Below, piece after piece: positions 7,068 to 44,564 of a DNA stretch of 46,523 nucleotides. The stretch's first letter is position 1, and every line of letters starts with the position of its first letter. The stretch covers positions 1 through 46,523 of the forward strand of contig JBMOPW010000039.1 of NCBI GenBank assembly GCA_049322915.1. The letters are read 5' to 3'. The notes under the pieces were generated by a model. It saw only the letters and a program-made list of their open reading frames with translations. It was not told where the DNA came from and searched no databases. The position numbers were made by a program, and so were the translations under genes. The stretch is from Candidatus Zhuqueibacterota bacterium (GTDB taxonomy: Bacteria; Zhuqueibacterota; Zhuqueibacteria; Thermofontimicrobiales; Thermofontimicrobiaceae).

Positions 7068-7073
7068 TTGTGA

Positions 7074-8321: not shown

Positions 8322-8374
8322 ACCGGGATGTTCCGAAAATGCGCTCCGATGGCGAACAAACGCGACAGTACCGC

Positions 8375-9397: not shown

Positions 9398-9429
9398 GGG
9401 CGATTGCTTTCCGGCGACAGGTTTATGAT

Positions 9430-19165: not shown

Positions 19166-19649
19166 CCCTCCCATCGACCTCATTGTTGCAGTCCGGGCTA
19201 AATTCAAATTTGAAATGGTAGACCCATCCCAATTACATGTCATGCATGTGGTTCAACGCTGTGTCAGTCTTGTTATTTAATCTGACCTGGCCGATGACCC
19301 GACGTGGTAGTTTTTGTCTTTATAACCTATCGATTTTAAAGCAGTGGCATCTACGTTTTCCTGCGGTTGTATTTCCCTGAGCAAACCTTATCCTGAAACA
19401 AATTTCGATTTTGTCAATGCCATGCCATTTAATGGCTACCAAAATCGGAAAAAATAATTGCTGCAGACGACGGTTCGCCTGCCAACAGGGCGAATACTCA
19501 CTGTTCGCGTTCAGGTATCAGCAATCTGGTTAAGGTCTTTCGCCGGAAAGACGATATAATTTTGAAATAATAGTGCCAAAGCGCGTTTCAACATTGATAT
19601 GATTATCTCCTTTGCAAAGGGAATGCCACATAAGGTGAGGAGAAAAGGT

Positions 19650-20957
19650 ATGGGAAAAAATATTCACTTGGAACCGGTCTCCGACCAGCAGCGCTGGACA
19701 GAACTTTTCCGTCAATGCAGTCGAGTCGATTTTATGCAGACATGGCAATATGGTCTGGCCATTCATCAAAGCATTCAATGGGAGCCCAGCCGTCAGGTCG
19801 TCCTCCTGGACAATGCTCCGATTGCACTGGCGCAGACGCTTGTAAAAAATGTCCCCACAATCGGGACGATTGCCAGAATCCAGCACGGCCCATTGTTTTT
19901 TACAAGCGAGAAAAAGGTGCTGGATGAGCATACAAAAATGGCCATTGATGCGCTCTGGACATACTGGGTAGAACAGCGCGGTATGAGTCTCCACGTGACT
20001 CCGTGTGTATTGCCTGATGACCTGCCGGAAAATTGGTATGCGTCGACCCGATTGGCGCCCTCCCGAGAGGTGCTCTGGGCATCGGTGCGGATCGATCTGA
20101 GGAATCAGCCGCAGCGCCTTCGCGAACAGATGAAGCGTAAGTGGCGCTATTCCCTCCGCAAGGCCGAAGAGATGGAACTCACGCTGGAAATGGGCATGAA
20201 CGAGAGCGATCTCAGGTACTTTTTGGACAGGTACCGGCAGACCTCATCCGAAAAGGGAATCACGTGGCCATCCCCGGACCTGATTCACGCGTTGTGGCGT
20301 CTGGGCGATGCGGATATGAAGCTGATTTTCGCGCAAAAAAATGGGGAACGGATTGGCGCAATGGTTCTATTCCCGTACGCGGATTCCGTGGTCGGACTGG
20401 TCGCCTGGAATGGTCCCCTGGCGCCGCAATACCACGCCCACAATTTTCTCATCTGGCAATCGGTGTTACTCTGCCAGAAGCTGGGATTCCGTTGGTTCGA
20501 CCTGGGTGGAATAGACGAGGTCAATTTGCCGGGAATCACCCAATTCAAGCTCGGATTTGGGGGCGAAACCTATCAGTACATTGGCAATTATGAGGCGAAA
20601 CCCGGGGCATTACATCAACAAACGCATGGCGCAGTGGACTTCCAGACGTACGATTCCTTCATCCCCGGACTGCATCTCTCATTGGAAAACACTTCCGGCA
20701 ATGATACCATCATGGCTGAGGTGGAGAAAATCGTGCGGGATTTGGTCCGGCAGACCACTGGCTGGGATGGCGAATTCGACGCCCGTTTTTCCCTCATCAA
20801 CAGCGGTCTCATCGACTCACTCAGCATGGTGAGCGTCATCCAGGAGTTGATTCGTAAATTTGATATAGATATACAGCCACAGGAAATCACCATTGATAAT
20901 TTTGATACCGTGGAAGCAATTGGACATTTAGTCACGACAAAAATAGCGCAGAATTGA
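19650..20957 (+). CDS. FemAB/FemX-type GNAT transferase fused to a C-terminal DltC-like acyl carrier protein
   Basis: FMQTWQYG, IQHGP, KWRYSLRKA, and WFDLGGID...GITQFKLGFGG are Fem-family motifs. C-terminal LINSGLIDSLSMV...ITIDNFDTVEAI is an ACP with the Ppant Ser codon at 20817-20819. RBS GAGGAG precedes ATG 19650; the ORF is open from 19599. Confidence 0.82.
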   Translation: MGKNIHLEPVSDQQRWTELFRQCSRVDFMQTWQYGLAIHQSIQWEPSRQVVLLDNAPIALAQTLVKNVPTIGTIARIQHGPLFFTSEKKVLDEHTKMAIDALWTYWVEQRGMSLHVTPCVLPDDLPENWYASTRLAPSREVLWASVRIDLRNQPQRLREQMKRKWRYSLRKAEEMELTLEMGMNESDLRYFLDRYRQTSSEKGITWPSPDLIHALWRLGDADMKLIFAQKNGERIGAMVLFPYADSVVGLVAWNGPLAPQYHAHNFLIWQSVLLCQKLGFRWFDLGGIDEVNLPGITQFKLGFGGETYQYIGNYEAKPGALHQQTHGAVDFQTYDSFIPGLHLSLENTSGNDTIMAEVEKIVRDLVRQTTGWDGEFDARFSLINSGLIDSLSMVSVIQELIRKFDIDIQPQEITIDNFDTVEAIGHLVTTKIAQN

Positions 20958-21059
20958 TGCAGCGGATGTCCGTCCCATTCCACGAGCAGGATTCATGTTG
21001 CCGGGCGATGAAATGCCCGTCGCTCAATCGATACATCACTTTTCACGCTGATCTGAGAT

Positions 21060-22499
21060 ATGAATTTCAATTCGTTTATATTTGCCATTTTCTTCTTCGT
21101 CGTTTATGCGCTCTATCTGGTGTTGAAGCATAAATCCCAGAACAGAATGCTGCTGGTAGCCAGTTGCCTGTTTTACAGCTTCTGGGATTGGCGTTTTTTA
21201 GGATTAATTTTTCTCTCAATCCTGGTCGACTATTTTTGCGCCATGCGCATTGAGCAGCATCAATCGAAAATCATTCGAAAAAGGTATCTGGCTCTGAGCA
21301 TTGTATTCAATCTTTCCGTCCTCAGCTTTTTCAAATATTTCAATTTCTTTGTCGATAGCTGCATCTCGTTCTGCTCGTTGATTGGGCTTAATTTATCCCC
21401 GCCAGCGCTCCACATTCTTTTGCCGGTCGGCATTTCGTTCTACACATTCAAAACCATGAGCTACACCATTGATGTCTATCGGAAGCAGGTGCAGCCGACG
21501 CATAATTTCCGGGACTATGCCCTCTATGTCATCTTTTTCCCGCAACTGGTGGCCGGCCCAATCGAACGAGCGAAAAATCTTCTCCTGCAAATCGCTCAGC
21601 CTCGTACCCTGACCCATGAAAAATTGACCCAGGGCTTTACGCTCATCTACTGGGGGCTGTTCAAAAAAGTGTTCATCGCGGATAATCTGGGCGCGATTTT
21701 AGGATTCTACAACAGTTCCCAGACCGCCGGCGATTTGAGCCAGGACGGTGGGATGATTTTAGCAACGACCTACATGTTCCTGTTCCAGCTCTATTGCGAC
21801 TTTTCTGCGTACTCGGACATGGCCCGGGGAATCGGCAAGCTCATGGGCTTTGAACTCATGGTCAATTTCCGATCTCCGTTTTATGCGAAGAATATCCAGG
21901 AGACCTGGAGTCGCTGGCACATCAGTTTGACAACCTGGATCCGCGACTACATCTATTACCCGCTGGCCACCATGAAAATAGGAAAGCGCTTTTTGAATGT
22001 GAATGTCGTGGTCATGACCACGTTCCTCATCATCGGATTGTGGCACGGCGCTTCGTGGAATTATGTGCTCTGGGGCGGGTATAACGGCATGGTGATGATA
22101 CTTTATTCCATCTTTGTCAGGGAGACGCGACGGTTCAGGAAAAAGAAACCGGCGTACCTTGCGGCGCCATTGCATGTGTTGTCCGTGATTACGACGTTCA
22201 ACGTAGCAGCCGTTGGATTGCTGTTCTTCCGGGCCGAATCGGTTCAACAAATTTCAACCTGGGTCTATCTTCTGTTCGCCAATTTTTCATTGAGCGCAGA
22301 TGCGCTGGAATTATTCTTCAAAATGCTGTTGTTCATTTCGCCGTTGCTGGTAGTCGAGTTTTACCTTTTTAAGAAGGATGATATTACCCAACTGTTGCAC
22401 GTTCATCCGGTTCTGCGATACGGGTTTTTCTACCTGACGTTCTATTTGCTGGTTGTCATGCGGGCGCAGTCGGATACATTTATCTACTTTCAATTTTGA
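21060..22499 (+). CDS. MBOAT family O-acyltransferase (AlgI/DltB-like)
   Basis: LPVGISFYTF, FFPQLVAGPIER, YCDFSAYSDMA, WSRWHISL, GLWHGASW (catalytic His), and C-terminal FIYFQF. Confidence 0.93.
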   Translation: MNFNSFIFAIFFFVVYALYLVLKHKSQNRMLLVASCLFYSFWDWRFLGLIFLSILVDYFCAMRIEQHQSKIIRKRYLALSIVFNLSVLSFFKYFNFFVDSCISFCSLIGLNLSPPALHILLPVGISFYTFKTMSYTIDVYRKQVQPTHNFRDYALYVIFFPQLVAGPIERAKNLLLQIAQPRTLTHEKLTQGFTLIYWGLFKKVFIADNLGAILGFYNSSQTAGDLSQDGGMILATTYMFLFQLYCDFSAYSDMARGIGKLMGFELMVNFRSPFYAKNIQETWSRWHISLTTWIRDYIYYPLATMKIGKRFLNVNVVVMTTFLIIGLWHGASWNYVLWGGYNGMVMILYSIFVRETRRFRKKKPAYLAAPLHVLSVITTFNVAAVGLLFFRAESVQQISTWVYLLFANFSLSADALELFFKMLLFISPLLVVEFYLFKKDDITQLLHVHPVLRYGFFYLTFYLLVVMRAQSDTFIYFQF

Positions 22500-22755
22500 G
22501 TGCATGATCCACGGATGCCGAAAGACGCCGGATCGATTTTTGGCGCTGCTCAGTGATCTTCAACTGGGGTGATGGCTGAATAGCGCGGTGCATCATTGAT
22601 TTCATTGGGAGCATGCGCAGCGAACGAGCCAAAGAATTCTGTCTGGCGCATCGTTCGTGGCGTCATTTCAGTCACACGGGGGGAACCGATTTCGGAACGA
22701 CTTTGATGATTCCACAGGAAAAAACTTGGCAAACTTACTTCGCTACATAGCATCC

Positions 22756-23952
22756 GTGAAGCGGTTTCTTCTGGTGCTGGGCGCATTTTGTCTGATTGAA
22801 ATTGCACTGGCGCACATCCTACCGGCAATCATTCCGCAGCGATGGTATTTTCGTATGTACCTCCCCTGGGAAGCGATGAAAAAGACCGAATTGTTTTTGA
22901 GCAGCCAATTCAATATCATACCAAGTCCGGACCTGGGCTGGCGGAATAAACCGAATGCAGTGATGAATAAAATACAGTACGATCATTACGGCTCCCGCTC
23001 GCATGGGGGAATTGTGTCCGATGCCCGAAAGCCCATGCGCATTGTTTTCATGGGCGATTCGCGGATTGGCGGATATAATAATTTAGCGAATGATGAAACC
23101 GTCAGCGCCTATCTGGAACATGGCGACCTGGAAACCCTGAATTTCGCCACAAACCTCTATGGCCTGGACCAGGTCTTTCTGGCGCTGCCGAAATGTTTGA
23201 GTCAATTCACGCCTGATGTGGTGGTCGTGGCCATCGGCTCGGACATCGGTCAGGCGTTGAATTGCGTGTACCTGCCGCTGACGGACAGGAATGTTGGCGC
23301 GCCGCTGTTGAAACCGCGATTCTTTTTGCAGGACGGGCAACTCACCTGCCTGAGGCCTGAGGTATGCAACCTGCTCCAGAATATTCCCAACAATCCGTCG
23401 CTTCTGGAATTTATTGAAAAGAACGATGGCCATTATTTTGTTTTTAAGCATTTTCAGCGGAAGGAAACCCTGCCTTTTCTATCGCTGTTTTCACTCATCC
23501 AGGCCAATATCGCTTATGTGAAGCAGCAAATTGATTATCATCTCGGAAGACCATCTTGGGCGTCTGTTACCAATGAAAAACTGGCAGCGAAAATTTTGAA
23601 CCAAATGGAATCGGAGGCTGAGGCGCGGAATGTCAGGTTGGTTTTTTTAGTAATGCCCAAACGCAGTGAGTTGAAGTCGGGAAGCCATGCGTATCAACAG
23701 GTGGTTCACATGGCCGATTCGTTAGGATTGCGTTATATCGATGGTCTGGCGATCTTTCAGCGGATCCGCGGCAGCGAGTCCCTGTTTTTTGATGAAGTCC
23801 ATCTGCTGGCAAAAGGCAATCAGGTATTGGCCAGCCAGTTGATGGAATGGTTGGGGCCATCCACGCGCTTCGCAGTGGAAAATCAGATTTCAGTCGATAA
23901 AAAATTCTCCGGGACGCGGATGGCTGAGGAAGTTGAGCGGGCTGGCCGTTGA
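22756..23952 (+). CDS. Membrane-anchored SGNH/GDSL-fold protein (AlgJ/DltD-like acyl-transfer partner)
   Basis: N-terminal TM segment, IVFMGDSR (block I), NFATNLYGLDQ (block II-like), and FFDEVHLLAKGN (DxxH). The ORF is open from 22657, with a likely GTG start at 22756. Confidence 0.78.
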   Translation: MKRFLLVLGAFCLIEIALAHILPAIIPQRWYFRMYLPWEAMKKTELFLSSQFNIIPSPDLGWRNKPNAVMNKIQYDHYGSRSHGGIVSDARKPMRIVFMGDSRIGGYNNLANDETVSAYLEHGDLETLNFATNLYGLDQVFLALPKCLSQFTPDVVVVAIGSDIGQALNCVYLPLTDRNVGAPLLKPRFFLQDGQLTCLRPEVCNLLQNIPNNPSLLEFIEKNDGHYFVFKHFQRKETLPFLSLFSLIQANIAYVKQQIDYHLGRPSWASVTNEKLAAKILNQMESEAEARNVRLVFLVMPKRSELKSGSHAYQQVVHMADSLGLRYIDGLAIFQRIRGSESLFFDEVHLLAKGNQVLASQLMEWLGPSTRFAVENQISVDKKFSGTRMAEEVERAGR

Positions 23953-25107
23953 GCCGTAGGCCCCGCAATTGAAGAACACGACGAAATCGCCGGGTTCCAC
24001 CGGCTGCGAACATTCCACATTCATGGCCAGAATGTCCTGCGGCGTGCAGAGGCAGCCGGCGATGTCCAGCATGTATGTGGCAACCGGCGACCGATCCGAA
24101 TGGGCCAGAATATCCAGTTCAAAATTTCTCCGAATGATTTGCCCCATCCCGCCGGCAAGCAGGTAATTCTGATGCATGCCTCCATCGACAATGGCAAATT
24201 GCTTCGACCGAACCTGTTTTCGGTACAGGACTTTCGTGACGTAAATCCCGCTCTCGGCGACTAAGAATCGGCCGGGTTCCACAATGCGCCGGCAGCGATT
24301 CAGCAGCGAGTGGTACTCCCTGCGATGAAATAACTGATGAAGCGCCTGGCCCAACCTGTCCAGGTTCAATCTGTTTTGACCAGGAAAATAGGGGATGCCC
24401 CAGCCGCCGCCGAAATTGATCTTTTCCATAAGGAGCCCTGATGCCATTTCAAGACGTTGCGCCAGTTGGATAATGGTCTCAACGTTGACGGCGAGCGATG
24501 ACTCATCCAGCACCTGGGATCCGCTGTGGACGTGGATTCCGGTGAAATGGATTCGGCCCTGATTCTGTTTTATCCTGTCGAGACAGCGGAGCGCCTCTAT
24601 TTCATCGAGACCGAATTGCGTCTCCCCGGCCATCTTCAATCCTGACTTCACCTGACTCTGATCCGGATTCACCCGAACGCCAACATTGGGCAGACAATGA
24701 TGCTGCCGCGCGATCTGAGTAATTTTCTCCAGTTCGACGAAGTTTTCGATGTTGAGTGAACCGACGTTATTCTGAATGGCGTACTCAAGCTCATCGTCGG
24801 TTTTTCCCGGCCCGCTGAATTCGATGTTCACCGCCGGAATCCCATTTTCCAGCGCCGCTGCCAGTTCGCCGGCAGAAGCGACGTCGGCACCAACGCCGAG
24901 TTCCGCCATCAGCCTCAAAATCGCCGGATGCGGATTGGCCTTCACAGCGTAATGCGGGGAAAACAGTGCACCGAACCGTGCGAGAAATTCATGCACCCGG
25001 GCGCGAATGAGCGACGGAAAATAGAAATAGCCGGGCGTCGGATACTGCCGAAGGATGCGGAGCAGATTGGCCCGGTTGATGATGCTGTAAAAATCCTGTC
25101 TGGTCAT
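23890..25107 (-). CDS. Fold-type III PLP-dependent decarboxylase (LysA/BtrK-like; exosortase-system-associated type)
   Basis: HYAVKANP (PLP Lys), DVASAGE, GPGKT, HVHSGSQ, NFGGGWG, EPGRFLV, DGGMHQ, GCLCTPQD, and GAYGSTASPLNFLSHPRP. Confidence 0.88.
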   Translation of the reverse strand: MTRQDFYSIINRANLLRILRQYPTPGYFYFPSLIRARVHEFLARFGALFSPHYAVKANPHPAILRLMAELGVGADVASAGELAAALENGIPAVNIEFSGPGKTDDELEYAIQNNVGSLNIENFVELEKITQIARQHHCLPNVGVRVNPDQSQVKSGLKMAGETQFGLDEIEALRCLDRIKQNQGRIHFTGIHVHSGSQVLDESSLAVNVETIIQLAQRLEMASGLLMEKINFGGGWGIPYFPGQNRLNLDRLGQALHQLFHRREYHSLLNRCRRIVEPGRFLVAESGIYVTKVLYRKQVRSKQFAIVDGGMHQNYLLAGGMGQIIRRNFELDILAHSDRSPVATYMLDIAGCLCTPQDILAMNVECSQPVEPGDFVVFFNCGAYGSTASPLNFLSHPRPGEFFID

Positions 25108-26711
25108 GAGTACTTTTCCTCAAGCGCTGCGAATTGAATTTTTCCCGACGGAGTGCGCGGAAACGAATCGACGAACTCGATGCGTGTGGGTAACATGTAC
25201 GAGGGCAGTTTTGTCGAGAGATAATGGCTGAATTTGGCGCGATCCATGGGCATTGCTCCCTGCCATTGAATTTCTGCTATCAGTTCGGTTTCGCTTTCTT
25301 GCCTGCTGACCCCGAAAACAGCCGCATCTTTCACTTCGGGATGGTTCAAAATGACGTCAAGAATTTCTTTGGGATAAACGCGATTGCCTTTTACCTTGAG
25401 CATTTTGTCTCTTCGACCCAAAACATAAATAAAACCCTCTTCATCTATCGTCCCCATATCGCCGGTGAAAATAACGCTCTGGTCGAAAAGAACCGGTGGT
25501 TCCTGCATCGGATTTTTTCTCAGCTTGGCCTGCGTCGCGGCCGCGTCGCCCAGGTAGCCGGCCATCATTCCATCGCCGCGATGGATTATTTCGCCCGGTT
25601 CATTGGGCCGGCAGCGATTGCCCTGTTCATCCACAATGAAAATTTCAGTGCCGGCGACAGCGCGCCCCACTGAGTTGATTTTTCTATCGAAATCATTGGG
25701 TTTCAAAATACCGCTGCGGAAGGCTTCTGTTTGTCCGTACGTCTTGAAGATATTGACATTCGGGGCGAGGTCGCGCAGCCTGCGAAGCTGGTTTTCGGCC
25801 ATGCCGCCGCCTGAGATGGTGAAATATCGCACCTGCGACAGGCAGGACTTCACCTCGTTCGGATCATACGCCAGTAGCTCGGACCAGATGCTCGGCACGC
25901 CGGAAATTCCGGTAATGCGATAGGTCGCGATGGCACGGCAGATGTCCTGCGCCAGCCACGAATTGATAATGACGAGCTGTGCGCCGGAAAACAGGCTGGC
26001 GTACAATTGATTCAGCCCCACATCGAAGGAGAAGGGCAAAAGACTCAGTAGCCGGTCGCCTTGCGTCAGTTGAAAATCCTCGCATTCGGTGGTCACCCGG
26101 TTCAAAAGATCCTGATGGGAAATCATGACGCCTTTGGGCACGCCGGTGGAGCCGGAAGTGAACAGCAGCGCCAGCACATCCTGTTTCAGGAAAGGAGAGG
26201 TGGAGCGAAAACCGGCCCGGTCATCGGAGTCCGGCGCGATGGACTCGATGGCAGTGAATGTCCGCAATTTTTCCAGACAGGTGATATGAACCGGGGACCG
26301 GGGCTGAGCGTCGTAATGCAGGATTCGCGTGCGCGAAAGTTGGCCGGGCTGCAATTGCGACAGCCGTATCAATCCGGGATTGTCCACCAGCAAAATCGAT
26401 GACTGGCATAGTTCGACGCTGAATTGAATTTGATGAAGGCTGAGTTTGGGATTTAAACTGTAGAAGGCCGCGCTGTTTTTCAGAATAGCGAGCATGGCAG
26501 TGACGTGCTCAGGACTCCGCTGCATGAAAATACCGACGAACTGCCCCTGCCTGAGACCCAGGTTGCGCAGAACTTCAGCGAGATTGTCCGAAAAGGCTTC
26601 GAGCTGGCGATAGGTGACATCGATGCGTTTGCCCATTCCCATGTGCTGTGTCACAGCGATCGCATCGGGAATAGCTGCGGCAGTCGTTGCAATTCGTTTT
26701 AGGGCTGACAT
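25104..26711 (-). CDS. AMP-forming acyl/aminoacyl ligase (adenylation enzyme; exosortase-A-associated type)
   Basis: FTSGSTGVPKGV (A3), LPFSFDVG, YGQTEAFR, FTGDMG, GRRD, and RTPSGKI (A10). Overlaps the decarboxylase start by 4 nt (ATGA). Confidence 0.88.
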   Translation of the reverse strand: MSALKRIATTAAAIPDAIAVTQHMGMGKRIDVTYRQLEAFSDNLAEVLRNLGLRQGQFVGIFMQRSPEHVTAMLAILKNSAAFYSLNPKLSLHQIQFSVELCQSSILLVDNPGLIRLSQLQPGQLSRTRILHYDAQPRSPVHITCLEKLRTFTAIESIAPDSDDRAGFRSTSPFLKQDVLALLFTSGSTGVPKGVMISHQDLLNRVTTECEDFQLTQGDRLLSLLPFSFDVGLNQLYASLFSGAQLVIINSWLAQDICRAIATYRITGISGVPSIWSELLAYDPNEVKSCLSQVRYFTISGGGMAENQLRRLRDLAPNVNIFKTYGQTEAFRSGILKPNDFDRKINSVGRAVAGTEIFIVDEQGNRCRPNEPGEIIHRGDGMMAGYLGDAAATQAKLRKNPMQEPPVLFDQSVIFTGDMGTIDEEGFIYVLGRRDKMLKVKGNRVYPKEILDVILNHPEVKDAAVFGVSRQESETELIAEIQWQGAMPMDRAKFSHYLSTKLPSYMLPTRIEFVDSFPRTPSGKIQFAALEEKYS

Positions 26712-30022: not shown

Positions 30023-30931
30023 TTGAGAATCAAAAAAGGAATTTTGTTCTTGATACTTCTGGTGTCGGGAGTTACCCTGTATGGTCAGGAGCGCAGAATA
30101 AAACCTGGCGATGTCATCGAAATTATAGTCGCTGATAATGTCGCTTTGAGCCAGAGTGTGGTAGTTCGCTCCAATGGCACAGTGGAATATCCAACGCTCC
30201 AGGACCTTCCAGTTGATGGCATCACTTTGAACAGATTCCAGGAATTGCTGATCACGCAATTATCACGATTTTTGGAGACATCCCCGCTTGTCCTGGTTCG
30301 TTTTGGTGAGAGCTACCCGATACGAGTGACAGTTCTGGGCCAGGTTGTAATGCCCGGGTTGTACACGATAGCAAACACTGCCACTTTGCAGGGCGCGATC
30401 GGAGCCGCGGGAGGGTTAACTCCTGGAGCACAATTATCAAAGGTGAAACTAATCAGGGATAACAGCGGCAGCAAGGAAAATATCATCATCAACATGGAAA
30501 ATTTTTACAAGAATGGCGATCCATCCGCCTTGCCTTTGCTCAAAGAAGGGGATACAATTGTAATTCCTGGCAATCCACTGGCCACAAATGTCAAGGTGTT
30601 AGGATGTGTGGAAAATCCCGGCAGTTACGATGTGCTTTTTCAGACGACAATTCTGGATGTGATTTTCATGGCGGGCGGACCAACCGAAGATGCCAATTTG
30701 AAAAAGGTGAAAATTATTTCGCTCACCGGCCAGGATGCCCGGGATGTTAAAATAGATATTGATGAATTAATGCATTCAAAGACGTATATAAATATTCCAA
30801 TTGTTGTGCCGGGCGATGTGGTGTACATACCGAAGAAGAAGTTAAATTGGTCGGGTATTATGACTGTGATTCGGGATCTCACCGCTTTTGCGACCCTGTA
30901 TTATATCATCTATCGTTCGAGTGGTAGCTAA
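30023..30931 (+). CDS. wza: Polysaccharide export protein (Wza-like; Poly_export + SLBB domains)
   Basis: IKPGDVIEI, VRSNGTVEYP, two SLBB repeats (VLGQVVMPG...AGG, VLGCVENPG...AGG), and a C-terminal amphipathic helix. TTG start with RBS GAGG. Confidence 0.85.
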   Translation: MRIKKGILFLILLVSGVTLYGQERRIKPGDVIEIIVADNVALSQSVVVRSNGTVEYPTLQDLPVDGITLNRFQELLITQLSRFLETSPLVLVRFGESYPIRVTVLGQVVMPGLYTIANTATLQGAIGAAGGLTPGAQLSKVKLIRDNSGSKENIIINMENFYKNGDPSALPLLKEGDTIVIPGNPLATNVKVLGCVENPGSYDVLFQTTILDVIFMAGGPTEDANLKKVKIISLTGQDARDVKIDIDELMHSKTYINIPIVVPGDVVYIPKKKLNWSGIMTVIRDLTAFATLYYIIYRSSGS

Positions 30932-31069
30932 TTTGATTAACAAGTACCAATTTTTTGACAGGACTTGCAGATTCATTTCAGGGAGTCTTAGTTCTTATTA
31001 ATTCACCGATCTAAAATATATAAGTATTTTTGTATATGTAAGAGTTATTTAGGGACATCAAGAAATCCT

Positions 31070-33310
31070 ATGAAGAATACAATGAACCCAAATTTTCAAG
31101 TACCTGTTACCGATTTTGAATCACAGTTGCAACAGATGGTTCAACAGGAAAAATCTATTTTTTATGATTACTTTCGGATAATACGTAATCGAAAATGGAC
31201 AATATTAATTTGCTTGGTTATAGCACTTATTCCAACGATTATTTGGAATCAACTATCAACGCCTATTTATGAAGCTGAAGCGATGATCATTTATGAAGAA
31301 CCGAAAGAATCAATGTTTGCTTTAGATGTCGGTCAACCGTTTTATAATCGAAGCGCCATTATTAATTTAACTGAACAGATCAAAAGTAGAACTCTCGCCA
31401 CGGAAGTTGCATTGTCTATGCCCGATGATATTGTGAATACGTTTAACTTTCCAGATGATCCCCCCCCGGGATTCACAAAGCATAGATATATTGCCGCGAT
31501 ATTGAAAAAGAACCTGGTTGTTAAATCTGTTCGTGGTGGTGAGATTTTGACTTTGAGTATCAGAACCAACCATCCTGAAAGTGCGAAGATGGCTATTAAT
31601 GGTTATATCGAGCGATTGATTGACTGGAATTTGAAAAAGAAACGCGCAGAAGTGACAAGCGTAAAGGATTTTGTTGAAAATCAATTGAGTGTATTTGAAA
31701 ACAAGTTGAACAAGGCGGAAGTCGCTCTGCAAGCGTACAAAGAAAAGAATGCGATGATTTCGCTGAGTGAAAGCTCCACGCAGATTCTTAGCCGAATGAC
31801 AGAGGCAGAGATTGCCTACAACCAAGCCAAAGCTGAACGAGAGGCATTGGAACAGAGAAGAAATTATATCGAAAAAAAGAAATCTGAAATGGCGCCAACT
31901 TTATCGATGCCTCAAAGTACGCGTTCTAAGGATTTGAAAGAGGAATTGGCGGGACTTGAAGAACAATATTCCTCTTTTCAACTACAACAAACGGAAGCGG
32001 ATCAACATGAGCGACTGGCTTTGCGAGACAAAATTGACCTTACAAAGCAGCAGTTGATTGCAGAATTATCACGTAATGCACAGCGAGAGAACTTATTAGA
32101 TCCTTTATCTCAGGGTAGAAGTTTGCTACAGGAATCGATAACTCTTGATGTCGACCTGGAAACTTACAAAGCGCGAGAAAATGGTCTAAAAAAAATATTA
32201 GAAGAGTATGAATTACAGTTACAATCACTTCCGGGACAGGAACTGCAACTCGCGCATCTCATCAGGGAAAAAGAGGTAAACGATAAAGTCTATTCAATAC
32301 TTCTTGAAAAACGGGAGGAAGCGCGAATCACTGAGGCAGCCAAGGTAGGTGATATTCAGATAATCGATCCTGCTGAACGGCCCATTCGTCCCAAACGACC
32401 CGATAAAACAATGAATTTAGTTATAGGATTTTTATCGGGTTTAGGATTGGGATTTATACTAGCGTTTTTGTTGAATTCCCTTGATACGTCTATAAAATCC
32501 CAGGAGGATATTGAAAGGTATATTAATTTACCAATCTTGGCGGCCATTCCCAGAATAAGCCAGAATGGAGTTTTGGCGATCAACAAGACCAGGCATTCAA
32601 AACAATTTTATTCCAATAAGCTATTATCCAATTTTGAAAATATCCCACATTTCTATGAGGCGTACCGTACTCTTCAATTGAATTTAGCATTTGCCAGTAC
32701 AGATCACAAAATTTCATCTATTATTTTAACAAGCGCTGGAGCGGGTGAAGGGAAATCGCTGACTGCCATTAATATGGCCCAAATGTTTGCTAAAACCGGA
32801 ACGAAAACAATATTGGTGGATTGCGATTTAAGGCGACCGATGGTTCATAAGATACTCGATTTGAAACAGGAACCAGGTTTGACCAATCTTTTGATCAATA
32901 AATCGACCGAATGGGAAAGTGTCGTCCAGAGGCTGAGCAACAGTGATCTTTCAATTATCACCAGTGGAACTTTGCCTCCCAATCCATCGGAAATGCTTTC
33001 ATCGCAGAGTATGAAAGACCTTATTGAAAAACTGAAAAATCACTCTGAACTACTTATCCTGGATGCTCCGCCAATCATTGCCGTAAACGATTCAATGATT
33101 CTCAGTAAGAATATCGATGGCGTTTGTTTTGTAGTGAGGTCCGAAAAAGCAAAACGGGACGCTGTTCAGCGAGCGAAAAGCATCTTACAAACACAGGGCA
33201 TAAAAATTTTCGGCGTAATATTGAATGATGTCAACCTGAAAAGTCAGTACGGTTATTACAAAGATTACTATTATTATTCTCACGATAAAAAAAAGAAACG
33301 TAAAGCGTAG
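31070..33310 (+). CDS. wzc: Polysaccharide co-polymerase / BY-kinase (Wzc/GumC)
   Basis: Two TM segments around a coiled-coil periplasmic domain, Walker A TSAGAGEGKS, VDCDLRRP, LPPNPSE, LDAPP, and C-terminal Tyr cluster YGYYKDYYYY. Confidence 0.93.
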   Translation: MKNTMNPNFQVPVTDFESQLQQMVQQEKSIFYDYFRIIRNRKWTILICLVIALIPTIIWNQLSTPIYEAEAMIIYEEPKESMFALDVGQPFYNRSAIINLTEQIKSRTLATEVALSMPDDIVNTFNFPDDPPPGFTKHRYIAAILKKNLVVKSVRGGEILTLSIRTNHPESAKMAINGYIERLIDWNLKKKRAEVTSVKDFVENQLSVFENKLNKAEVALQAYKEKNAMISLSESSTQILSRMTEAEIAYNQAKAEREALEQRRNYIEKKKSEMAPTLSMPQSTRSKDLKEELAGLEEQYSSFQLQQTEADQHERLALRDKIDLTKQQLIAELSRNAQRENLLDPLSQGRSLLQESITLDVDLETYKARENGLKKILEEYELQLQSLPGQELQLAHLIREKEVNDKVYSILLEKREEARITEAAKVGDIQIIDPAERPIRPKRPDKTMNLVIGFLSGLGLGFILAFLLNSLDTSIKSQEDIERYINLPILAAIPRISQNGVLAINKTRHSKQFYSNKLLSNFENIPHFYEAYRTLQLNLAFASTDHKISSIILTSAGAGEGKSLTAINMAQMFAKTGTKTILVDCDLRRPMVHKILDLKQEPGLTNLLINKSTEWESVVQRLSNSDLSIITSGTLPPNPSEMLSSQSMKDLIEKLKNHSELLILDAPPIIAVNDSMILSKNIDGVCFVVRSEKAKRDAVQRAKSILQTQGIKIFGVILNDVNLKSQYGYYKDYYYYSHDKKKKRKA

Positions 33311-33835
33311 GTAGCCGGCTTTATTTTCAACACCAGAATTTTTCATTCGCGCTGAATAACTGGTTGCTGTGCTTCGCGATGGAGTTCGAAACGGATGAAG
33401 TATACCGAGAACTTTTGCTCAGTGAAGAAACTCAACTTGACTGACAATTAAACTTCTGAATTTGGCTTATTGAAGTATCCTTCCCGATTGCAAGGTAACT
33501 TATCATTCCGTTTTAAAAATGTTGTGCAAAGCCTATACGATGATTGTATTGTATGTAGCGATGACTAGAAATTTCAATATCGCAGTATGTACTTTTATGT
33601 ATTGTTCATTCGAAGTGGTTTCTTTTGATTTGCATTTCTACAGCTACAAAGCACTTTGTGAGATTAAATCCTGATTCCTGACCTTTTTCGGTTTACTTGC
33701 CCATGTGACTGACGTGGCGGAGCTATCTACTACCATGTCTTATTGAGTCAGTTCCTTTTTCTTTCTCTCTCTGAAACCATCGCTGAATGGTTAAGGTCTT
33801 GGAAATTTTATTCACCTCAGTTAATGGTTCCCACC

Positions 33836-35170
33836 ATGCAAAAATTCTATAAAAATATCAAAAGCGTATTTGAAAGCCGGGCATCACGACTGATGCGATC
33901 CATGAATGGATCAGTCAAGAATCTTTACTCAGTGGAATCTTTTAAAAAACTTTTATTTATTGAAAAACGAAGGGCAGAACGTTCTAATGCCAGCTCTTCT
34001 TTAATTCTATTGAACTTTCGAAGATATGCTGAGACCATTCATAAAAATGGAAATTTATTTTTAAAGGATACGGAGTATTTGGTAAAATTAATTTGCACGA
34101 ATATCCGTGAAACCGATGTTGTGTGTCTCTATGATTGTCTTACAGTTTTTATTTTACTTCCGGATACGCGAGTCGAAGGGGCAAAAATCGCATGCAAAAG
34201 AATTGTAGAGCAATTGATCTTCGCCCAGAATAACTATTATTATATCAATGAATTGAATTATAATACGCTTGACATCGAGGTAATTTCTTACCCAACCCAC
34301 GATCGATTGAAAGAAGGCGAGGCCGAGTACCCTGGAACCAGGCCGTCTATTCATAAGCAAAATGTTTTCAGTGGAAGAAATGGATCAGTGGCACTTTTCA
34401 ACGTATTGTTGATACATAATAGTGAAAAGAACCTTGAATTTCGTCAGAGTTCCGTGAATTATGAATCAATAGCACTTCCGGTGTTAAATATGTTTTTTTG
34501 GGAGAACCATTTCATTTCAGTGTTTCATTCGTTCACAAAGAAATTCGCCAAGCGCGGAATGGACTTTGTTGGAGCGATTTTCTTGATTCTATTATTGCTT
34601 CCCGCTTTTCTCATTATTGGATTTTTGGTGAAAGTGACGTCTAAAGGTTCAATAATTTATAAGCAGATCCGAATCGGTCATAAGGGGCGATATTTCAAAT
34701 TCTATAAATTCAGATCCATGTTCCAAAATTGTGATCATCGAGTTCATCAGGAATATGTTAAAAATTTAATTCGTGGCAATTCAGAAGAAATTAATAATGG
34801 TACCAAGGACGATCCTTTTTTCAAAATTAACAATGATCCCAGAATTACTTCTCTTGGCAGGATACTGAGAATGACGAGTCTTGATGAACTGCCGCAACTG
34901 TTCAATGTTTTAAAGGGCGAAATGAGTTTAGTTGGACCGCGGCCCCCCCTACCTTATGAAATTGAAAATTATAAACCCTGGCATTTTCGTCGGATTCTGG
35001 AAGTGAAGCCTGGTATTACCGGGTTGTGGCAAGTCAACGGTAGAAATAAAACTACGTTTGATGAAATGGTGCGCATGGACATCCACTATGCTGAGAAATG
35101 GTCATTATTTTTGGATTTAAAAATTTTACTAAAAACAATTAAGGTGTTATTTGTATTTGATGGCAAATAA
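33836..35170 (+). CDS. Priming sugar transferase (Bac_transf phosphoglycosyltransferase) with N-terminal degenerate GGDEF-like domain
   Basis: C-terminal KRGMDF, YKFRSM, DPRIT, SLDELPQL, MSLVGPRP, and KPGITGLWQV. The N-terminal region aligns to the GGDEF fold with an RETD I-site. Start uncertain; the ORF is open from 33743. Confidence 0.88.
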   Translation: MQKFYKNIKSVFESRASRLMRSMNGSVKNLYSVESFKKLLFIEKRRAERSNASSSLILLNFRRYAETIHKNGNLFLKDTEYLVKLICTNIRETDVVCLYDCLTVFILLPDTRVEGAKIACKRIVEQLIFAQNNYYYINELNYNTLDIEVISYPTHDRLKEGEAEYPGTRPSIHKQNVFSGRNGSVALFNVLLIHNSEKNLEFRQSSVNYESIALPVLNMFFWENHFISVFHSFTKKFAKRGMDFVGAIFLILLLLPAFLIIGFLVKVTSKGSIIYKQIRIGHKGRYFKFYKFRSMFQNCDHRVHQEYVKNLIRGNSEEINNGTKDDPFFKINNDPRITSLGRILRMTSLDELPQLFNVLKGEMSLVGPRPPLPYEIENYKPWHFRRILEVKPGITGLWQVNGRNKTTFDEMVRMDIHYAEKWSLFLDLKILLKTIKVLFVFDGK

Positions 35171-35223
35171 TAAAAATTTGATAAGCTCTTCTTACTTATA
35201 CCGCATGAATGAGGAGAAATGGA

Positions 35224-36252
35224 ATGAAGAAATTTAACGTTGCTGTGATCGGTTGCGGCTATTGGGGGCCAAATTTAATACGAAATTTCTATCAACTGTC
35301 AACGTGTAACATGGTCGCATGCTGTGACCTGTCCGAAAATAATTTGAAACGAATGAAAAATTTATATCCAGCTATCACGACGATCACGGATTATCAGGAT
35401 CTGATATCAAATCCTGATATTGATGCCGTGGCTATTGCAACGCCCGTATTTTCACATTGGGAACTGGCAAAGAAATGCTTGGAGGCGAATAAGCACGTTC
35501 TCATCGAAAAACCAATGGCATCAAATTCCGAGCAATGCATCGATTTAATTGAAACGGCAAAAAAATTCAGTCGAGTATTGATGGTCGGACACACTTTTGA
35601 ATACACTGCTGCTGTGAACAAGGCGAAGGAAATTGTGGATAGTGGTGAGCTGGGAGAAATTTATTACATCAGCAGCACGCGAGTCAACCTGGGTCTGTTT
35701 CAACCTGATATCAACGTGATCTGGGACCTGGCGCCGCATGATATTTCCATTATTTCCTATATGTTGAACGAAAGTCCAATCGGCGTTGGAGGTCAGGGGA
35801 AAGCCCACTTTAATAAAGAAATCGAAGATGTCGCTCAGATCACCTTAAATTACCCTAATGGAACAATCGCATTCATTCACAACAGTTGGCTCGATCCCGA
35901 CAAAATTCGAAAGACGACCATAGTTGGAAATAAAAAGATGCTTGTATACAATGATATCAGCCCCAATGAGAAAATAAAAATTTATGATAAAGGGGTCGAA
36001 GCCCCACCATATTATGATACCTACGCTGAATTCCACTTTTCATATCGCTACGGAGATATTTACACCCCGAGGATTGAAGAGTACGAGCCACTAAAACGCG
36101 AGTGCGAGCACTTTTTGGATTGTATTCGAGATTCAAAAACCCCCAAAAGCGACGGCTACTCTGGTTTAAGGGTTGTTTCTATTTTAGAAGCCGCAAATAA
36201 ATCCATGCGAAACGGCGGCGGTCAGCAGCCGATTGTTGCATATTACGCATGA
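35224..36252 (+). CDS. Gfo/Idh/MocA family oxidoreductase (WbpB/WlbA-like sugar dehydrogenase)
   Basis: VIGCGYWG Rossmann motif, HVLIEKP, and WDLAPHD. RBS GAGGAG precedes ATG 35224. Confidence 0.88.
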   Translation: MKKFNVAVIGCGYWGPNLIRNFYQLSTCNMVACCDLSENNLKRMKNLYPAITTITDYQDLISNPDIDAVAIATPVFSHWELAKKCLEANKHVLIEKPMASNSEQCIDLIETAKKFSRVLMVGHTFEYTAAVNKAKEIVDSGELGEIYYISSTRVNLGLFQPDINVIWDLAPHDISIISYMLNESPIGVGGQGKAHFNKEIEDVAQITLNYPNGTIAFIHNSWLDPDKIRKTTIVGNKKMLVYNDISPNEKIKIYDKGVEAPPYYDTYAEFHFSYRYGDIYTPRIEEYEPLKRECEHFLDCIRDSKTPKSDGYSGLRVVSILEAANKSMRNGGGQQPIVAYYA

Positions 36253-36346
36253 CGGGAACCGTTCCCACCTCGATAATTACCCAAAATAAAACAAGGTCTC
36301 ATTGTAAAGATGAGGTAATCAATACTATTTTTGAAAGGGATCTGAA

Positions 36347-36817
36347 TTGAGCCTGAGAAAGATCGCAGATGATGTAAAGCTTGGCAATAATGTGAAAATC
36401 TATGACTTTGTCAATCTTTATGGCTGTGAAATTGGAGACAATACAAAAATCGGCGCCTTTGTTGAAATTCAAAAAGGCGTGAAAATTGGTAATAACTGTA
36501 AGATTTCCAGCCACACATTTATTTGTGAAGGTGTGACCATCGAAGACAATGTGTTTATTGGGCACAATGTCACTTTTATAAATGATCTCTATCCTCGCGC
36601 GACCTCCGAAATGGGTGAACTCCAAACAGAAGCTGATTGGGTGTGCATTCCGACATTGATAAAAAAAGGAGCCTCCATTGGATCGAGTTCGACATTATTG
36701 TGTGGCATTACTGTTGGTGAAAATGCCATGGTTGGCGCAGGGAGTGTAGTGACAAAGGATGTCGCGGATGGGATCGTAGTGGTCGGGAATCCTGCGAGGG
36801 TAATAAAAACGAATTAA
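36347..36817 (+). CDS. Hexapeptide-repeat N-acetyltransferase (WbpD/WlbB-like)
   Basis: LbH repeats, FINDLYPRA, and VGAGSVVTKDV...VVGNPAR. TTG start. Confidence 0.88.
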   Translation: MSLRKIADDVKLGNNVKIYDFVNLYGCEIGDNTKIGAFVEIQKGVKIGNNCKISSHTFICEGVTIEDNVFIGHNVTFINDLYPRATSEMGELQTEADWVCIPTLIKKGASIGSSSTLLCGITVGENAMVGAGSVVTKDVADGIVVVGNPARVIKTN

Positions 36818-36842
36818 AGCGTTGTTAGCAATGAGAGAAAGG

Positions 36843-37114
36843 GAATCTTACAATAGAGAAATTTCAACTTACATTCAAGAAATTATATCTCGCAGTCATG
36901 AAATTGCATCGTTCAATAGAGAATTCCAATTTTACATTGAAGTAATGGAATCATACATTAACGAAATACAATTTTACATCTAAGAATTGCAATATGGGAA
37001 TAAGGAAATGGGAGTATACATTAAATAAATCCCGTCTTACATTGAAGCAATCTGATTTTATAAGAAGGAAATAAATATTAAATAGGAGAAATCCTATTCA
37101 ACATTTGATAAATT
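36843..37114 (+). repeat. Degenerate 21-bp tandem array (~13 units), possibly a decayed heptad-repeat ORF
   Basis: Consecutive 21-mers such as GAATCTTACAATAGAGAAATT, TCAACTTACATTCAAGAAATT, CAATTTTACATTGAAGTAATG, GAATCATACATTAACGAAATA and CCGTCTTACATTGAAGCAATC. Confidence 0.75.
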
Positions 37115-37215
37115 AAAAAGTTACTTATGATCTATTTTAATTCCGATGAACACAAAGTTAACTTAAATTTCAAAACTTATTGATGAATTTGAGTCGAAAA
37201 TAATCGCGCACCTGT

Positions 37216-38091
37216 ATGCCCCCAAAGTATGCAATAATAACACCGGCAAGAAATGAAGAGAAGTATATTGATTCAACCATAGCATCGGTTCTCTCCCAAA
37301 CTGCAAAGCCGGCAATCTGGGTCATAATCGATGATCACTCCACCGATAGAACTCGGGAAATCATTGATGCTGCACGAGATGAATTTCCATGGATACAATT
37401 ACTTGAAAATGATATTGAGGCGGAACGAGCGCCAGGAGCTAAGGTTGTTAGGTTATTTAATTTGGGCATTGATTCACTGAAGGATGAATATGATTTCCTC
37501 GTGAAGCTCGATGCAGATTTATCGTTTCGCCCTGATTATTTCGAAAGACTTTTTCTTGAATTTGAACGAGATCCCCATCTGGGAATCGCGGGAGGCTACT
37601 GCCAGAATCAAGATGGGCAGGCATTGAAAACTGAATGGACGCCTGAATATCACGTTCGCGGGGCAACGAAAGTGTATCGAAAAAAGTGTCTTTCGGATAT
37701 AGGAGGATTGATCCCGGTCATGGGCTGGGATGGTCTGGATGAAATGAAAGCGCAGATGTTAGGCTGGAATACAAAAAGTTTTAAAGATCTTCTCATTCTA
37801 CATCTACGGCACACCGGCCAAGCTACCGGCAAAATTCGATTCGCATGGCTCTGGGGAGTATCATCACATTATATGGGTTATGATCCAATATTTTTTTTAA
37901 TTCGATGCATGAGAAATATCAAACGACGTCCCTATCTGCTATTTAGTATGACCATGGTTTTTGGCTACCTTTACTCTTTGGTTGTTCGCAGCAAGCAAGT
38001 GGATGATAAAAATTTAATCCTATACATTAGAAAATTCCAAAGAAGGCGCCTTTTTTCTAACCTCAAATTTATCAATAGAAAAAATATCTGA
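37216..38091 (+). CDS. Glycosyltransferase family 2
   Basis: IITPARNEE, IDDHSTDRT, and KLDAD (DxD). Confidence 0.92.
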   Translation: MPPKYAIITPARNEEKYIDSTIASVLSQTAKPAIWVIIDDHSTDRTREIIDAARDEFPWIQLLENDIEAERAPGAKVVRLFNLGIDSLKDEYDFLVKLDADLSFRPDYFERLFLEFERDPHLGIAGGYCQNQDGQALKTEWTPEYHVRGATKVYRKKCLSDIGGLIPVMGWDGLDEMKAQMLGWNTKSFKDLLILHLRHTGQATGKIRFAWLWGVSSHYMGYDPIFFLIRCMRNIKRRPYLLFSMTMVFGYLYSLVVRSKQVDDKNLILYIRKFQRRRLFSNLKFINRKNI

Positions 38092-38338
38092 GAATTTGAT
38101 TAGGTGGCTACTTGTCTTAATGACTCAATAATTTGGGCTATTTGCTATTTGTTGGAAATAATCAAAAGCTCCTTCCTTTATAACATCTGTATTTCCTCCT
38201 CAGTTCTGTGATAATCATACCGTATCTATCTTCACAATTGATTTCATCATTTCATCATCGATTCTATGAATTAAGTGCTGGTTAAATAATAGTTACTTTT
38301 AGCTGAATCCCCCCATAAATTTTTAAGAACAAATAACT

Positions 38339-39649: not shown

Positions 39650-39676
39650 CATCGCGTCGTTGGTGAGATTGTTACA

Positions 39677-40942: not shown

Positions 40943-40946
40943 AAAT

Positions 40947-41921: not shown

Positions 41922-41959
41922 TATCTCACCAATTCTATTATTAGCTCCAGCAGATTTCA

Positions 41960-43060: not shown

Positions 43061-43212
43061 TTGATTTTGACACCAATGGTTGTGTTTTTACTAAATGAAT
43101 CTTAACAGAACGGCCCAGCAATAGATATTAACAGTGTATGCTCTTTTTGCTGTTAAATAGACAAATTGTTTACAGTCCTTTGATTGATAAAAATTTTTTA
43201 TTAAAAGGTAAG

Positions 43213-44388: not shown

Positions 44389-44491
44389 TTATAGTCATTC
44401 CCTCAAATTAAAGCTTATTTTGTTAATGACTCATAAAGGATTTACAAAGATGCAGGCAGGATATGCTGTAACATACAATGGTTGAAAAATA

Positions 44492-44507
44492 TGGCACTGA
44501 CTTTGCA
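44492..44507 (+). promoter_or_regulatory. sigma54 (-24/-12) promoter
   Basis: TGGCACTGACTTTGCA matches TGGCAC-N5-TTGCA, 57 nt upstream of the next ATG. Confidence 0.6.
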
Positions 44508-44564
44508 AAAGAAAAATGTGTAAAATTCTATTGGATGAATTAACTTGAAAATGGGAGATGCATT

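Follow-up and report, generated by a model that had tools for sequence, protein, structure and literature searches.

A Fem-family transferase fused to a DltC-like carrier domain, and the envelope acylation pathway it may serve in diderm bacteria

Why should a Fem-family transferase carry an acyl carrier protein (ACP) of its own? The question is raised by a gene in a DNA stretch of 46,523 nucleotides (nt) from Candidatus Zhuqueibacterota bacterium (positions 1 to 46,523, forward strand, of contig JBMOPW010000039.1, assembly GCA_049322915.1; the whole stretch is hereafter called the window), where an initial annotation, made from the letters of the DNA, had described a single reading frame joining a Fem-family domain to a DltC-like ACP and had associated it with export by an MBOAT protein. 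The answer that we propose is a Dlt-like, carrier-dependent pathway acylating an envelope polymer in a diderm bacterium. Taken as a whole, Fem step included, we regard this account as possible rather than probable. Its backbone, which runs from the carrier to the MBOAT and on to an SGNH transferase, is likely, and the Fem step as we state it, that is the aminoacylation of a tethered amine from aminoacyl-tRNA, is tentative. Gene anatomy, conservation, folds and gene neighbourhoods were observed directly and the pathway steps are all inferred. The fusion gene is organised as follows.

19650..20957, forward strand: Fem-ACP fusion gene, 435 amino acids plus stop (open reading frame list, Pfam, conserved full-length homologues).
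19650..20615, forward strand: FemX-like tandem-GNAT domain, residues 1-322 (Foldseek, conserved columns).
20607..20702, forward strand: linker, variable and predicted to be disordered, residues 320-351 (predicted local distance difference test, pLDDT, <50).
20703..20954, forward strand: carrier-protein domain (acyl or peptidyl carrier protein, DltC-like), presumed phosphopantetheine site Ser390 at 20817-20819.

Do the two domains truly form one protein? In the list of open reading frames (ORFs) the frame is uninterrupted over 19599..20957 on the forward strand, and the ATG at 19650, which has a GAGGAG box 8-13 nt upstream, agrees as a start with the N-termini of the homologues in an alignment of 17 sequences. 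Pfam recognises FemAB at residues 234-321 of the fusion (6.4e-14; 52 bits against a cut-off of 24), Acetyltransf_6 at residues 161-290 (2.4e-9) and PP-binding at residues 362-426 (6.1e-4), the last at 20.4 bits, slightly below its cut-off of 20.8. When 5.8 billion proteins were searched with a word index, 25 matches were returned: 17, the window protein included, cover 98-100% of the query and keep both domains, and the remaining 8 reach the Fem part only. The other 16 full-length homologues share 40-47% identity with the window protein, and D389-S390-L391, K300, W253 and the LPGIT motif are invariant in all 17 fused proteins of the alignment. The AlphaFold2 model of the fusion, computed from the 17 sequences, reaches a mean pLDDT of 83.6 and a predicted template modelling score of 0.72. 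Because residues 320-351 are the sole stretch with pLDDT below 50, we set the linker at about 30 residues; the initial annotation was right that a linker is present but had made it somewhat longer, at about 35 residues. Both its sequence and its length vary among the aligned homologues. Docking the two domains (1-322 for Fem, 350-435 for the carrier) gave a score of 0.01, which is no evidence either way.

A fused frame may also be the artefact of a missed stop codon, of a frameshift or of chimeric assembly. For the probable source sample there is an independent assembly, a Logan contig of 45,570 nt, which shows 0 differences and 0 gaps over 19650-21100. A second study yields contig pieces over 20463-20792 that differ by substitutions only; 20693 T>A and 20744 G>A, the two in that span, are third-position synonymous changes (codons read by eye). 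The region 20600-20720, where the initial annotation had called for a check, lies within both spans. Since all 17 homologues are fused, the Logan contig is identical and the second study differs by substitutions only, a missed stop or a frameshift is excluded for practical purposes. We found nothing in favour of an artefact and reject it, its probability being practically nil: besides the 17 fused homologues, there are 12 further loci from separate assemblies, including the complete genome of the cultured Desulfonema magnum, the source-sample assembly is identical, and the second study has synonymous changes only across the linker. On this record of sequences the fusion is real and under selection, and the single frame described at the outset is borne out by the ORF list, by Pfam and by the homologues.

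Judged by its sequence, the carrier domain resembles DltC, as first described. Its best NCBIfam match is DltC NF003464 (1.4e-5, below cut-off), and the family profile, run against the PDB, retrieves peptidyl, aminoacyl and D-alanyl carrier proteins at 4e-8 to 3e-6. The AlphaFold2 model places helices at residues 350-370, 390-404, 415-418 and 421-434, a helical bundle with the serine of the D-S-L motif at the start of helix 2. This serine is residue 390, encoded by TCA at 20817-20819 within GLIDSLS, the very codon that had been singled out initially. A scan of all six frames with a hidden Markov model (HMM) found the fused domain to be the only carrier-like ORF in the window.

To what, then, would the carrier hand its cargo? 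Two genes follow the fusion on the same strand.

21060..22499, forward strand: MBOAT acyltransferase, 479 amino acids (Pfam MBOAT 1.2e-21).
22657..23952, forward strand: SGNH (DltD/PatB-like) transferase, membrane-anchored, 431 amino acids, start codon uncertain.

Searches with the window proteins (tblastn) place the MBOAT gene directly downstream of the fusion in 13 out of 13 evaluable loci (the window, L001-L008, L024, L025, L069 and L071; L023 ends at the fusion), so that the MBOAT association of the initial annotation holds well beyond the window, and wherever the DNA extends beyond the MBOAT, as it does in 11 loci, the SGNH gene comes third. Given this adjacency, we consider Fem-carrier, shuttle-MBOAT and SGNH transferase to be the constant core of the system. 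The MBOAT has a His329 in a WHG motif (22044-22046); DltB is both its sole NCBIfam match (TIGR04091, 1.6e-51; 175.7 bits, below the cut-off of 375) and its sole PDB match (2e-29). At the C-terminus it exceeds the DltB model by about 88 residues, and the extra part holds an acyl-shuttle motif, FIYFQF, at 22479-22496, which includes Tyr476. The motif conforms to FxYxxF and, as (F/Y)IYFQF, closes the MBOAT in the eight loci out of eight that were read to the stop codon. According to PMC12148441, the tyrosine of the FXYXXF acyl-shuttle carries the acyl group from the MBOAT to its SGNH partner, the motif being located on the microprotein DltX in Dlt and fused to the MBOAT in PatA-type systems.

The third protein matches Pfam GDSL weakly (4.5e-5), with Ser135 in a GDSR block (23059-23061) and His382 in a DEVH block (23800-23802). 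G-D-S-R is invariant in 7/7 sequences and D..H (DxxH) in 6/7, giving the catalytic Ser/Asp..His set of an SGNH enzyme. A long N-terminal helix is seen in its AlphaFold2 model (pLDDT 73.9), whose top Foldseek matches are all SGNH/GDSL hydrolases; a DltD-specific match was found neither by sequence (E 0.04-1.4) nor by fold, both being generic SGNH. The SGNH gene of one KSB1 metagenome-assembled genome (MAG; L001/L070, G278:C396) aligns only to residue 280 and is without the D..H block, and the decarboxylase match of the same MAG has 2 in-frame TAA codons; these genes may be decaying, or the breaks may be assembly errors.

What is the cargo? Two genes convergent to the core provide an indication.

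23890..25107, reverse strand: pyridoxal phosphate (PLP)-dependent decarboxylase, BtrK-like, convergent to the core.
25104..26711, reverse strand: adenylate-forming ligase (A-domain-like), presumed carrier loader (AMP-binding 1.2e-80).

The best PDB match of the decarboxylase is BtrK, 'L-glutamyl-[BtrI acyl-carrier protein] decarboxylase' (1.4e-70, 241 bits), against 4.5e-46 and 160 bits for the best diaminopimelate decarboxylase; it is nearer BtrK than the free-substrate decarboxylases and is, like BtrK, paired with a ligase and a carrier. Among NCBIfam models, the decarboxylase best matches the exosortase-A-associated TIGR03099 (4e-108; 362 bits, below the cut-off of 478.45) and the ligase TIGR03098 (1.2e-126; 423.3 bits, below 592.35). 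The ligase has the signatures SFDVGLNQ and TEAFRS in common with two genuine TIGR03098 ligases and scores 186.7 bits with the DltA equivalog TIGR01734, whose cut-off is 559.85. The A-domain Asp (SFDV) and the conserved Arg (TEAFRS) of the ligase would suit an amino dicarboxylate. On what we take to be the A-domain specificity positions, placed by motif anchors only, the residues are D, V, N, S, an ambiguous pair, T, R, S and K. We make no call between Asp and Glu, because two alignments of the GGG region are possible and the mapping of the positions is our own assumption. D-alanine is probably not the cargo, given the presence of the decarboxylase. The Btr pathway includes, with BtrJ, a matching N-aminoacylation of the carrier-bound unit. 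As described in the review PMC11350588, the PLP decarboxylases BtrK, CtaF and FlvO turn Glu or Asp, tethered to a carrier through the side-chain carboxyl, into 4-aminobutyrate (GABA) or beta-alanine. VinN, VinL and VinO of vicenistatin work alike, VinM then adding L-Ala to the freed amine on the carrier, where its substrate is 3AIB-VinL (PMC11284099).

We propose the following sequence of events: (i), the ligase would adenylate Asp or Glu and thioesterify its side-chain carboxyl to the phosphopantetheine of Ser390. (ii), the decarboxylase, by homology with BtrK, would remove the free alpha-carboxyl to leave a beta-alanyl- or 4-aminobutyryl-S-carrier. (iii), the Fem domain would add an aminoacyl group from aminoacyl-tRNA to the tethered amine, yielding a dipeptidyl thioester; this is the weakest step. 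(iv), the MBOAT, as its conserved motifs suggest, would pass the acyl group to its own Tyr476, in the FIYFQF tail, outside the membrane, and (v), Ser135 of the SGNH protein would pick up the acyl group and place it on a hydroxyl group of an envelope polymer, which might be the polysaccharide of an adjacent cluster (see below). The operon would thus probably attach a small group derived from an amino acid to a polysaccharide. The most specific form of the proposal, in which a tRNA-dependent Fem domain extends beta-alanyl or GABA on its own carrier and the dipeptidyl thioester goes through the shuttle-MBOAT to become an exopolysaccharide ester in a diderm, is doubtful.

How far does the Fem domain itself agree with step (iii)? 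Foldseek against the PDB ranks FemX of Weissella viridescens first (1.3e-17, template modelling score 0.73 on the target), followed by Staphylococcus aureus FemX, the aminoacyl-tRNA-dependent peptide synthases Sba18/Sbb17, FemA and MprF; together with the Pfam FemAB match this gives a double-GNAT fold like that of FemX. The score with TIGR03019 is 28.7 bits, below its cut-off of 260.35. The motif LPGITxFK contains the nearly invariant F299 and the invariant K300 (20544-20549), W253 being invariant as well. The review PMC12945691 gives Lys305 as the only reactive active-site residue of FemX and, as its equivalent in DhpH-C, Lys329, which is preceded by Phe328. The profile alignment of the Fem domain with FemX ends at query 291/FemX 295, nine residues short of K300, which reaches FemX 304-305 only if the alignment is extrapolated beyond its last column; read in this way, the F299-K300 pair would sit at the place of the catalytic Lys of the family. 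The window contains no tRNA gene.

The initial annotation had offered two chemistries, a carrier thioester serving as donor to the Fem domain, or the addition of a tRNA-derived residue onto the amine of the carrier-bound unit. We favour the second, because the decarboxylase is BtrK-like, because Btr and Vin N-aminoacylate such units, and because there is a precedent in PacB, a Fem-like enzyme that is reported in a review (PMC4052509) to transfer Ala from Ala-tRNA onto a peptide bound to its carrier, PacH.

A number of observations nevertheless weigh against this choice and give its rivals their substance, and the first group concerns the ligase and the decarboxylase. The pair occurs in the window and in four other genomes (L001/G278, L005, G001 and G002); it adjoins the core in L001/G278, lies 7-9 kb off in L005 and about 11 kb off on the same contig in G001, and is found on another contig in G002. 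The decarboxylase is outside the constant core, and about half of the loci are without it. Its orthologue was not found in G003, G279 and G280, where the matches are LysA-like at 30-32% only, and the search of G005 returned no match whatever; the genome-wide search of D. magnum covered the ligase only. G279 (L071, G279:C246) and G280 (L069, G280:C31) belong to the family of the window's bacterium, and there the three-gene core abuts an inosine monophosphate dehydrogenase (IMPDH) gene, with no ligase at the locus. The IMPDH gene of the window lies beyond the ligase, the pair sitting between it and the core (22657-28845), and the pair thus appears as an insertion or a deletion. The three-gene core is also without a locus ligase in L007, and no more than 2 AMP-binding matches turned up across the 8.4 Mb of G003. 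D. magnum (L003) and L024 have a different ligase beside the core, of the acyl-CoA-synthetase type with FHAFGG and without the amine-binding Asp, so that the cargo of these two loci may lack the amine that the Fem step requires.

Could the Fem domain load the carrier instead, by moving the aminoacyl group of an aminoacyl-tRNA to the phosphopantetheine thiol in place of a DltA-type ligase, with the ligase-decarboxylase pair as an add-on? The cores without a locus ligase (L007, G279, G280), the two AMP-binding matches of G003 and the variation of ligase types among loci are all arguments for it. However, a dedicated ligase is kept in five genomes and another adjacent ligase in two loci, G280 and D. 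magnum possess further ligase-plus-carrier pairs elsewhere that could serve, and we know of no Fem enzyme that has been found to form a thioester; we consider carrier loading by the Fem domain very unlikely. The further pairs (L015 in D. magnum, G004:C1:2979142-2983602; L075 in G280, G280:C87) each consist of a ligase 30-33% identical to that of the window and a small carrier-like ORF beside it, and could be separate systems or trans-acting loaders.

The second group concerns the unfused relatives. The nearest Fem-only proteins (about 30% identity) are encoded in polysaccharide loci, with polysaccharide deacetylases, family-2 glycosyltransferases, asparagine-synthase-like amidotransferases and DegT aminotransferases; in three such loci (L027, L031 and L032) a polysaccharide deacetylase follows each Fem-like gene and a Wzy-like gene is among the neighbours. 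Many of the next relatives, from Leptospira and others, measure about 700 amino acids and have their Fem part at the C-terminal end (P0018-P0024 and many of P0037-P0171), and two of these, P0019 and P0024, contain DegT in precomputed Pfam assignments. The loci of the Fem-only relatives and the DegT pairing therefore point to sugar amines as the ancestral acceptors, and the recurring combination of aminotransferase and Fem hints at amino-sugar aminoacylation.

It may thus be asked whether the fused Fem domain still uses aminoacyl-tRNA on a separate acceptor, for example a precursor sugar amine, the carrier serving the MBOAT only and the fusion doing no more than co-localise or co-dose the two activities. 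This would agree with the polysaccharide loci of the closest unfused relatives, with the position of the operon 3 kb from a polysaccharide cluster, with the long, disordered linker and with the cassette of the L049 type described below, which goes from carrier to MBOAT without a Fem. But the fusion is kept in 17/17 proteins from distant lineages, which exceeds the usual demand of co-dosing, a conserved fusion usually means consecutive steps, and neither a glycosyltransferase nor a deacetylase is a constant neighbour of the fused form. We judge the separate acceptor unlikely.

A third point comes from the MBOAT, since those with a fused shuttle tail are so far known, from PMC12148441, to use acyl-CoA and no carrier. 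This fact, along with the preceding ones, bears on the carrier-thioester donor. Here the phosphopantetheine arm would replace CoA and the Fem domain would N-acylate a cytoplasmic amine, such as an amino sugar of a polysaccharide precursor, whether de-N-acetylated or made by DegT, and the MBOAT and SGNH proteins would share the carrier or O-acylate the same polymer from acyl-CoA. The fusion puts such a donor beside its enzyme, the tandem-GNAT fold includes CoA users (the clavulanate tandem GNAT and VipF, further down the Foldseek list at about 1e-9), and both ligase types would be accommodated, including the one without the amine-binding Asp; the deacetylases and aminotransferases adjoining the Fem-only relatives would make the sugar amines. 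On the other hand, the best structural matches all use aminoacyl-tRNA, the residues that would correspond to the Lys and Phe of a tRNA-dependent active site are conserved, and the adjacency of Fem-ACP and MBOAT in 13/13 loci is less well explained, as is the likeness to DltC and DltB; our literature search, moreover, found no Fem-family enzyme using a carrier thioester. The balance makes this donor improbable in our view. We retain the aminoacylation of a carrier-bound amine as the preferred reading of the Fem step, and the carrier-thioester donor and other chemistries stay alive beside it because about half of the loci are without the decarboxylase and the second ligase is without the amine-binding Asp.

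Is a route from carrier to MBOAT found outside the fused form? The ligase and decarboxylase matches lead to the cassette associated with exosortases, in which TIGR03099 scores over cut-off in 34/151 genomes sampled from one order, that of the Ramlibacter MAG of L009. From 35 genomes with a match we sampled ten loci (17-kb stretches, taken at the best-scoring places and on long contigs; G035 was left out). The ligase lies within the 17-kb stretch in 9/10, a carrier-like ORF (HMM of the window's carrier domain) in 8/10 and an MBOAT in 1/10. This last locus, L049 (G020:C23:15868-33061, about 4900-12030), has TIGR03098, TIGR03099, TIGR03100 and TIGR03101 all over cut-off. One strand encodes a separate small carrier-like ORF, hydrolase 2 and hydrolase 1, and the other the ligase, the decarboxylase, an MBOAT ending in FLYFQF and a membrane protein with a G-T-S-R block. 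This unfused architecture lends independent support to the step from carrier to MBOAT, and L049 suggests that some XrtA loci send the product of the cassette through a Dlt-like export route. The same locus is also to be counted against our Fem step, for it has no detectable Fem partner nearby; when all ten cassette loci were scanned with HMMs of the 17 fused proteins and of 70 Fem-only representatives, no credible match of the window's kind came up. L052 (5741-7998) has a distant PF13480 GNAT and a DegT-like gene after its exosortase-type decarboxylase. TIGR03099 was not found in four Comamonadaceae/Ramlibacter genomes with Fem-only relatives of 23-25% identity. The window's system is not itself an XrtA system, since the exosortase family PF09721 was not found in its genome, which is 96.3% complete.

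How widespread is the fusion? A profile of the 17 sequences, searched without a word index against 1.84 billion cluster representatives, gave 18,429 matches at E <=1e-3, of which 676 at <=1e-30. The carrier part is present in 12 of the best 150 representatives, 11 of them running from the N-terminus to 431-434 and one being a fragment (82-433). The other 138 of the best 150 have the Fem part only, up to position 340 at most, either as stand-alone proteins of about 320-350 amino acids or at the C-terminus of proteins of about 700 amino acids. The fused gene was found in 8 species-representative genomes, including KSB1, Omnitrophota and Desulfobacterales MAGs and the complete genome of D. magnum, in 3 metagenome contigs and in 3 further genomes of the window's phylum (among the latter G278, whose contig, by its length and identical tblastn values, is that of L001). 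Within this phylum, 4/167 genomes, the window's included, have the full-length form, and none at E <=1e-40 occurs in the other genome of the window's genus, which is 94% complete. The architecture is thus rare and patchy. Public names of the fused protein are 'GNAT family N-acetyltransferase' or 'FemA/FemB family', with one JGI name giving both halves, and our literature search, from whose reach most subscription journals lay outside, found no paper on the fusion or the operon. The initial annotation would have lost its point had the architecture been common and already characterised, and it is neither.

Which polymer might be acylated? A candidate lies on the same strand.

30023..45866, forward strand: polysaccharide export and biosynthesis cluster, candidate acceptor pathway (Pfam; context only).

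The cluster begins 3 kb beyond the ligase, and its Pfam families are Poly_export/SLBB, Wzz/GNVR/ParA, Bac_transf, glycosyltransferases 2 and 1, a pyruvyl transferase and a hexapeptide acyltransferase. It contains a Wza-like exporter, a Wzc-like chain-length/kinase protein, an initiating sugar transferase, an oxidoreductase, a FrhB-like partner of the pyruvyl transferase and a GNAT. Other core loci have different neighbours, for instance Tad pilus genes or giant LamG proteins. The core of L002 (7466-15208) and that of L004 (7358-14075) are located amid Tad/Flp pilus genes (TadE, RcpC/CpaB, TadG-like), and a conserved ORF of about 247 amino acids, which matches no family, overlaps the fusion gene at its start; in L002 and L005 the core adjoins LamG-domain proteins of about 1700 amino acids.

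Elsewhere in the window, a D-glutamate cyclase-like protein (8375-9397, reverse strand; GLUCM-like_C, 3.8e-55) is encoded about 10 kb upstream of the fusion, next to a 1606-amino-acid subtilase (9430-14250, reverse strand; Peptidase_S8) with many repeat modules and a C-terminal FlgD_ig-like domain, which looks like a type IX secretion sorting domain. A 1037-amino-acid GH52 protein (1927-5040) ends in a FlgD_ig-like domain as does the subtilase. When the window was scanned for regulatory sites, the promoter-like count equalled that of shuffled sequences and the terminator-like count was about 2.5 standard deviations above it, and we drew on no such site.

Acylation of the envelope or of exopolysaccharides affects charge, biofilm behaviour and resistance to cationic agents. 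Carrier-fed acylation has so far been Gram-positive (Dlt), and the operon suggests a parallel route in diderms with another amino-acid-derived cargo. The fusion acts as a 'Rosetta stone', physically tying a Fem-like enzyme to a thioester carrier. If our proposal is true in its most specific form, it would be the first link of aminoacyl-tRNA-dependent peptide-bond formation with Dlt-type envelope acylation and the first carrier-fed PatA-type MBOAT, and it would supply a chemistry for the long-catalogued, unexplained ligase/decarboxylase/carrier cassette of exosortase loci. The pathway can be tested: cultured D. magnum, with its complete genome, has the fused gene, and the soluble parts are small.

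How does this system compare with known ones? With the Dlt system of Firmicutes (DltA, DltC, DltB, DltX, DltD) it shares a ligase, a carrier with a presumed Ser-phosphopantetheine site, an MBOAT and a membrane-anchored SGNH protein with Ser/Asp/His. It differs in that its carrier is the C-terminal domain of a Fem-like enzyme and not a free-standing DltC, in that there is no separate DltX, the shuttle being fused to the MBOAT as in PatA, in that the hosts are diderm bacteria without known teichoic acids, and in that all the Dlt equivalog scores of the window are far below cut-off. The PatA/PatB-type MBOAT-SGNH systems (acetylation of peptidoglycan, alginate or cellulose) have the same MBOAT of about 480 amino acids, the same C-terminal FxYxxF tail and a separate SGNH partner; they use acyl-CoA without a carrier, as stated in PMC12148441, whereas here a carrier domain is encoded immediately upstream in 13/13 loci. 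BtrI/BtrJ/BtrK, VinL/VinN/VinO/VinM, CtaD-F and FlvL-O combine, as here, a ligase, a carrier and a PLP decarboxylase of alanine-racemase fold. However, these Btr (butirosin), Vin (vicenistatin), Cta and Flv systems belong to antibiotic biosynthesis and deliver their product to a polyketide synthase or an aminoglycoside; in Btr and Vin the amide is formed by the ATP-dependent VinM and BtrJ, which are not Fem-like, and none has MBOAT or SGNH export. PacB (pacidamycin), FemX, DhpH-C and Orf11/Sbb17 have in common with the Fem domain the double-GNAT fold and, by extrapolation, the conserved Phe-Lys, but PacB and its carrier are separate proteins of a nonribosomal peptide synthetase line, and neither a fused carrier nor a link to an MBOAT is found in any of these Fem-like enzymes. 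The XrtA/PEP-CTERM cassette (TIGR03098 ligase, TIGR03099 decarboxylase, small carrier, two hydrolases) provides the best NCBIfam matches of the window's pair, and its ligases have the signatures SFD.G.NQ and TEAFRS; in contrast, the window's proteins remain below the equivalog cut-offs, hydrolase genes are absent and the carrier is fused to a Fem domain. Each part is thus of a known kind, and what appears to be new, as far as sequences can tell, is the combination: a carrier fused to a Fem domain, a carrier coupled to a PatA-type MBOAT, and a decarboxylation module that would feed export.

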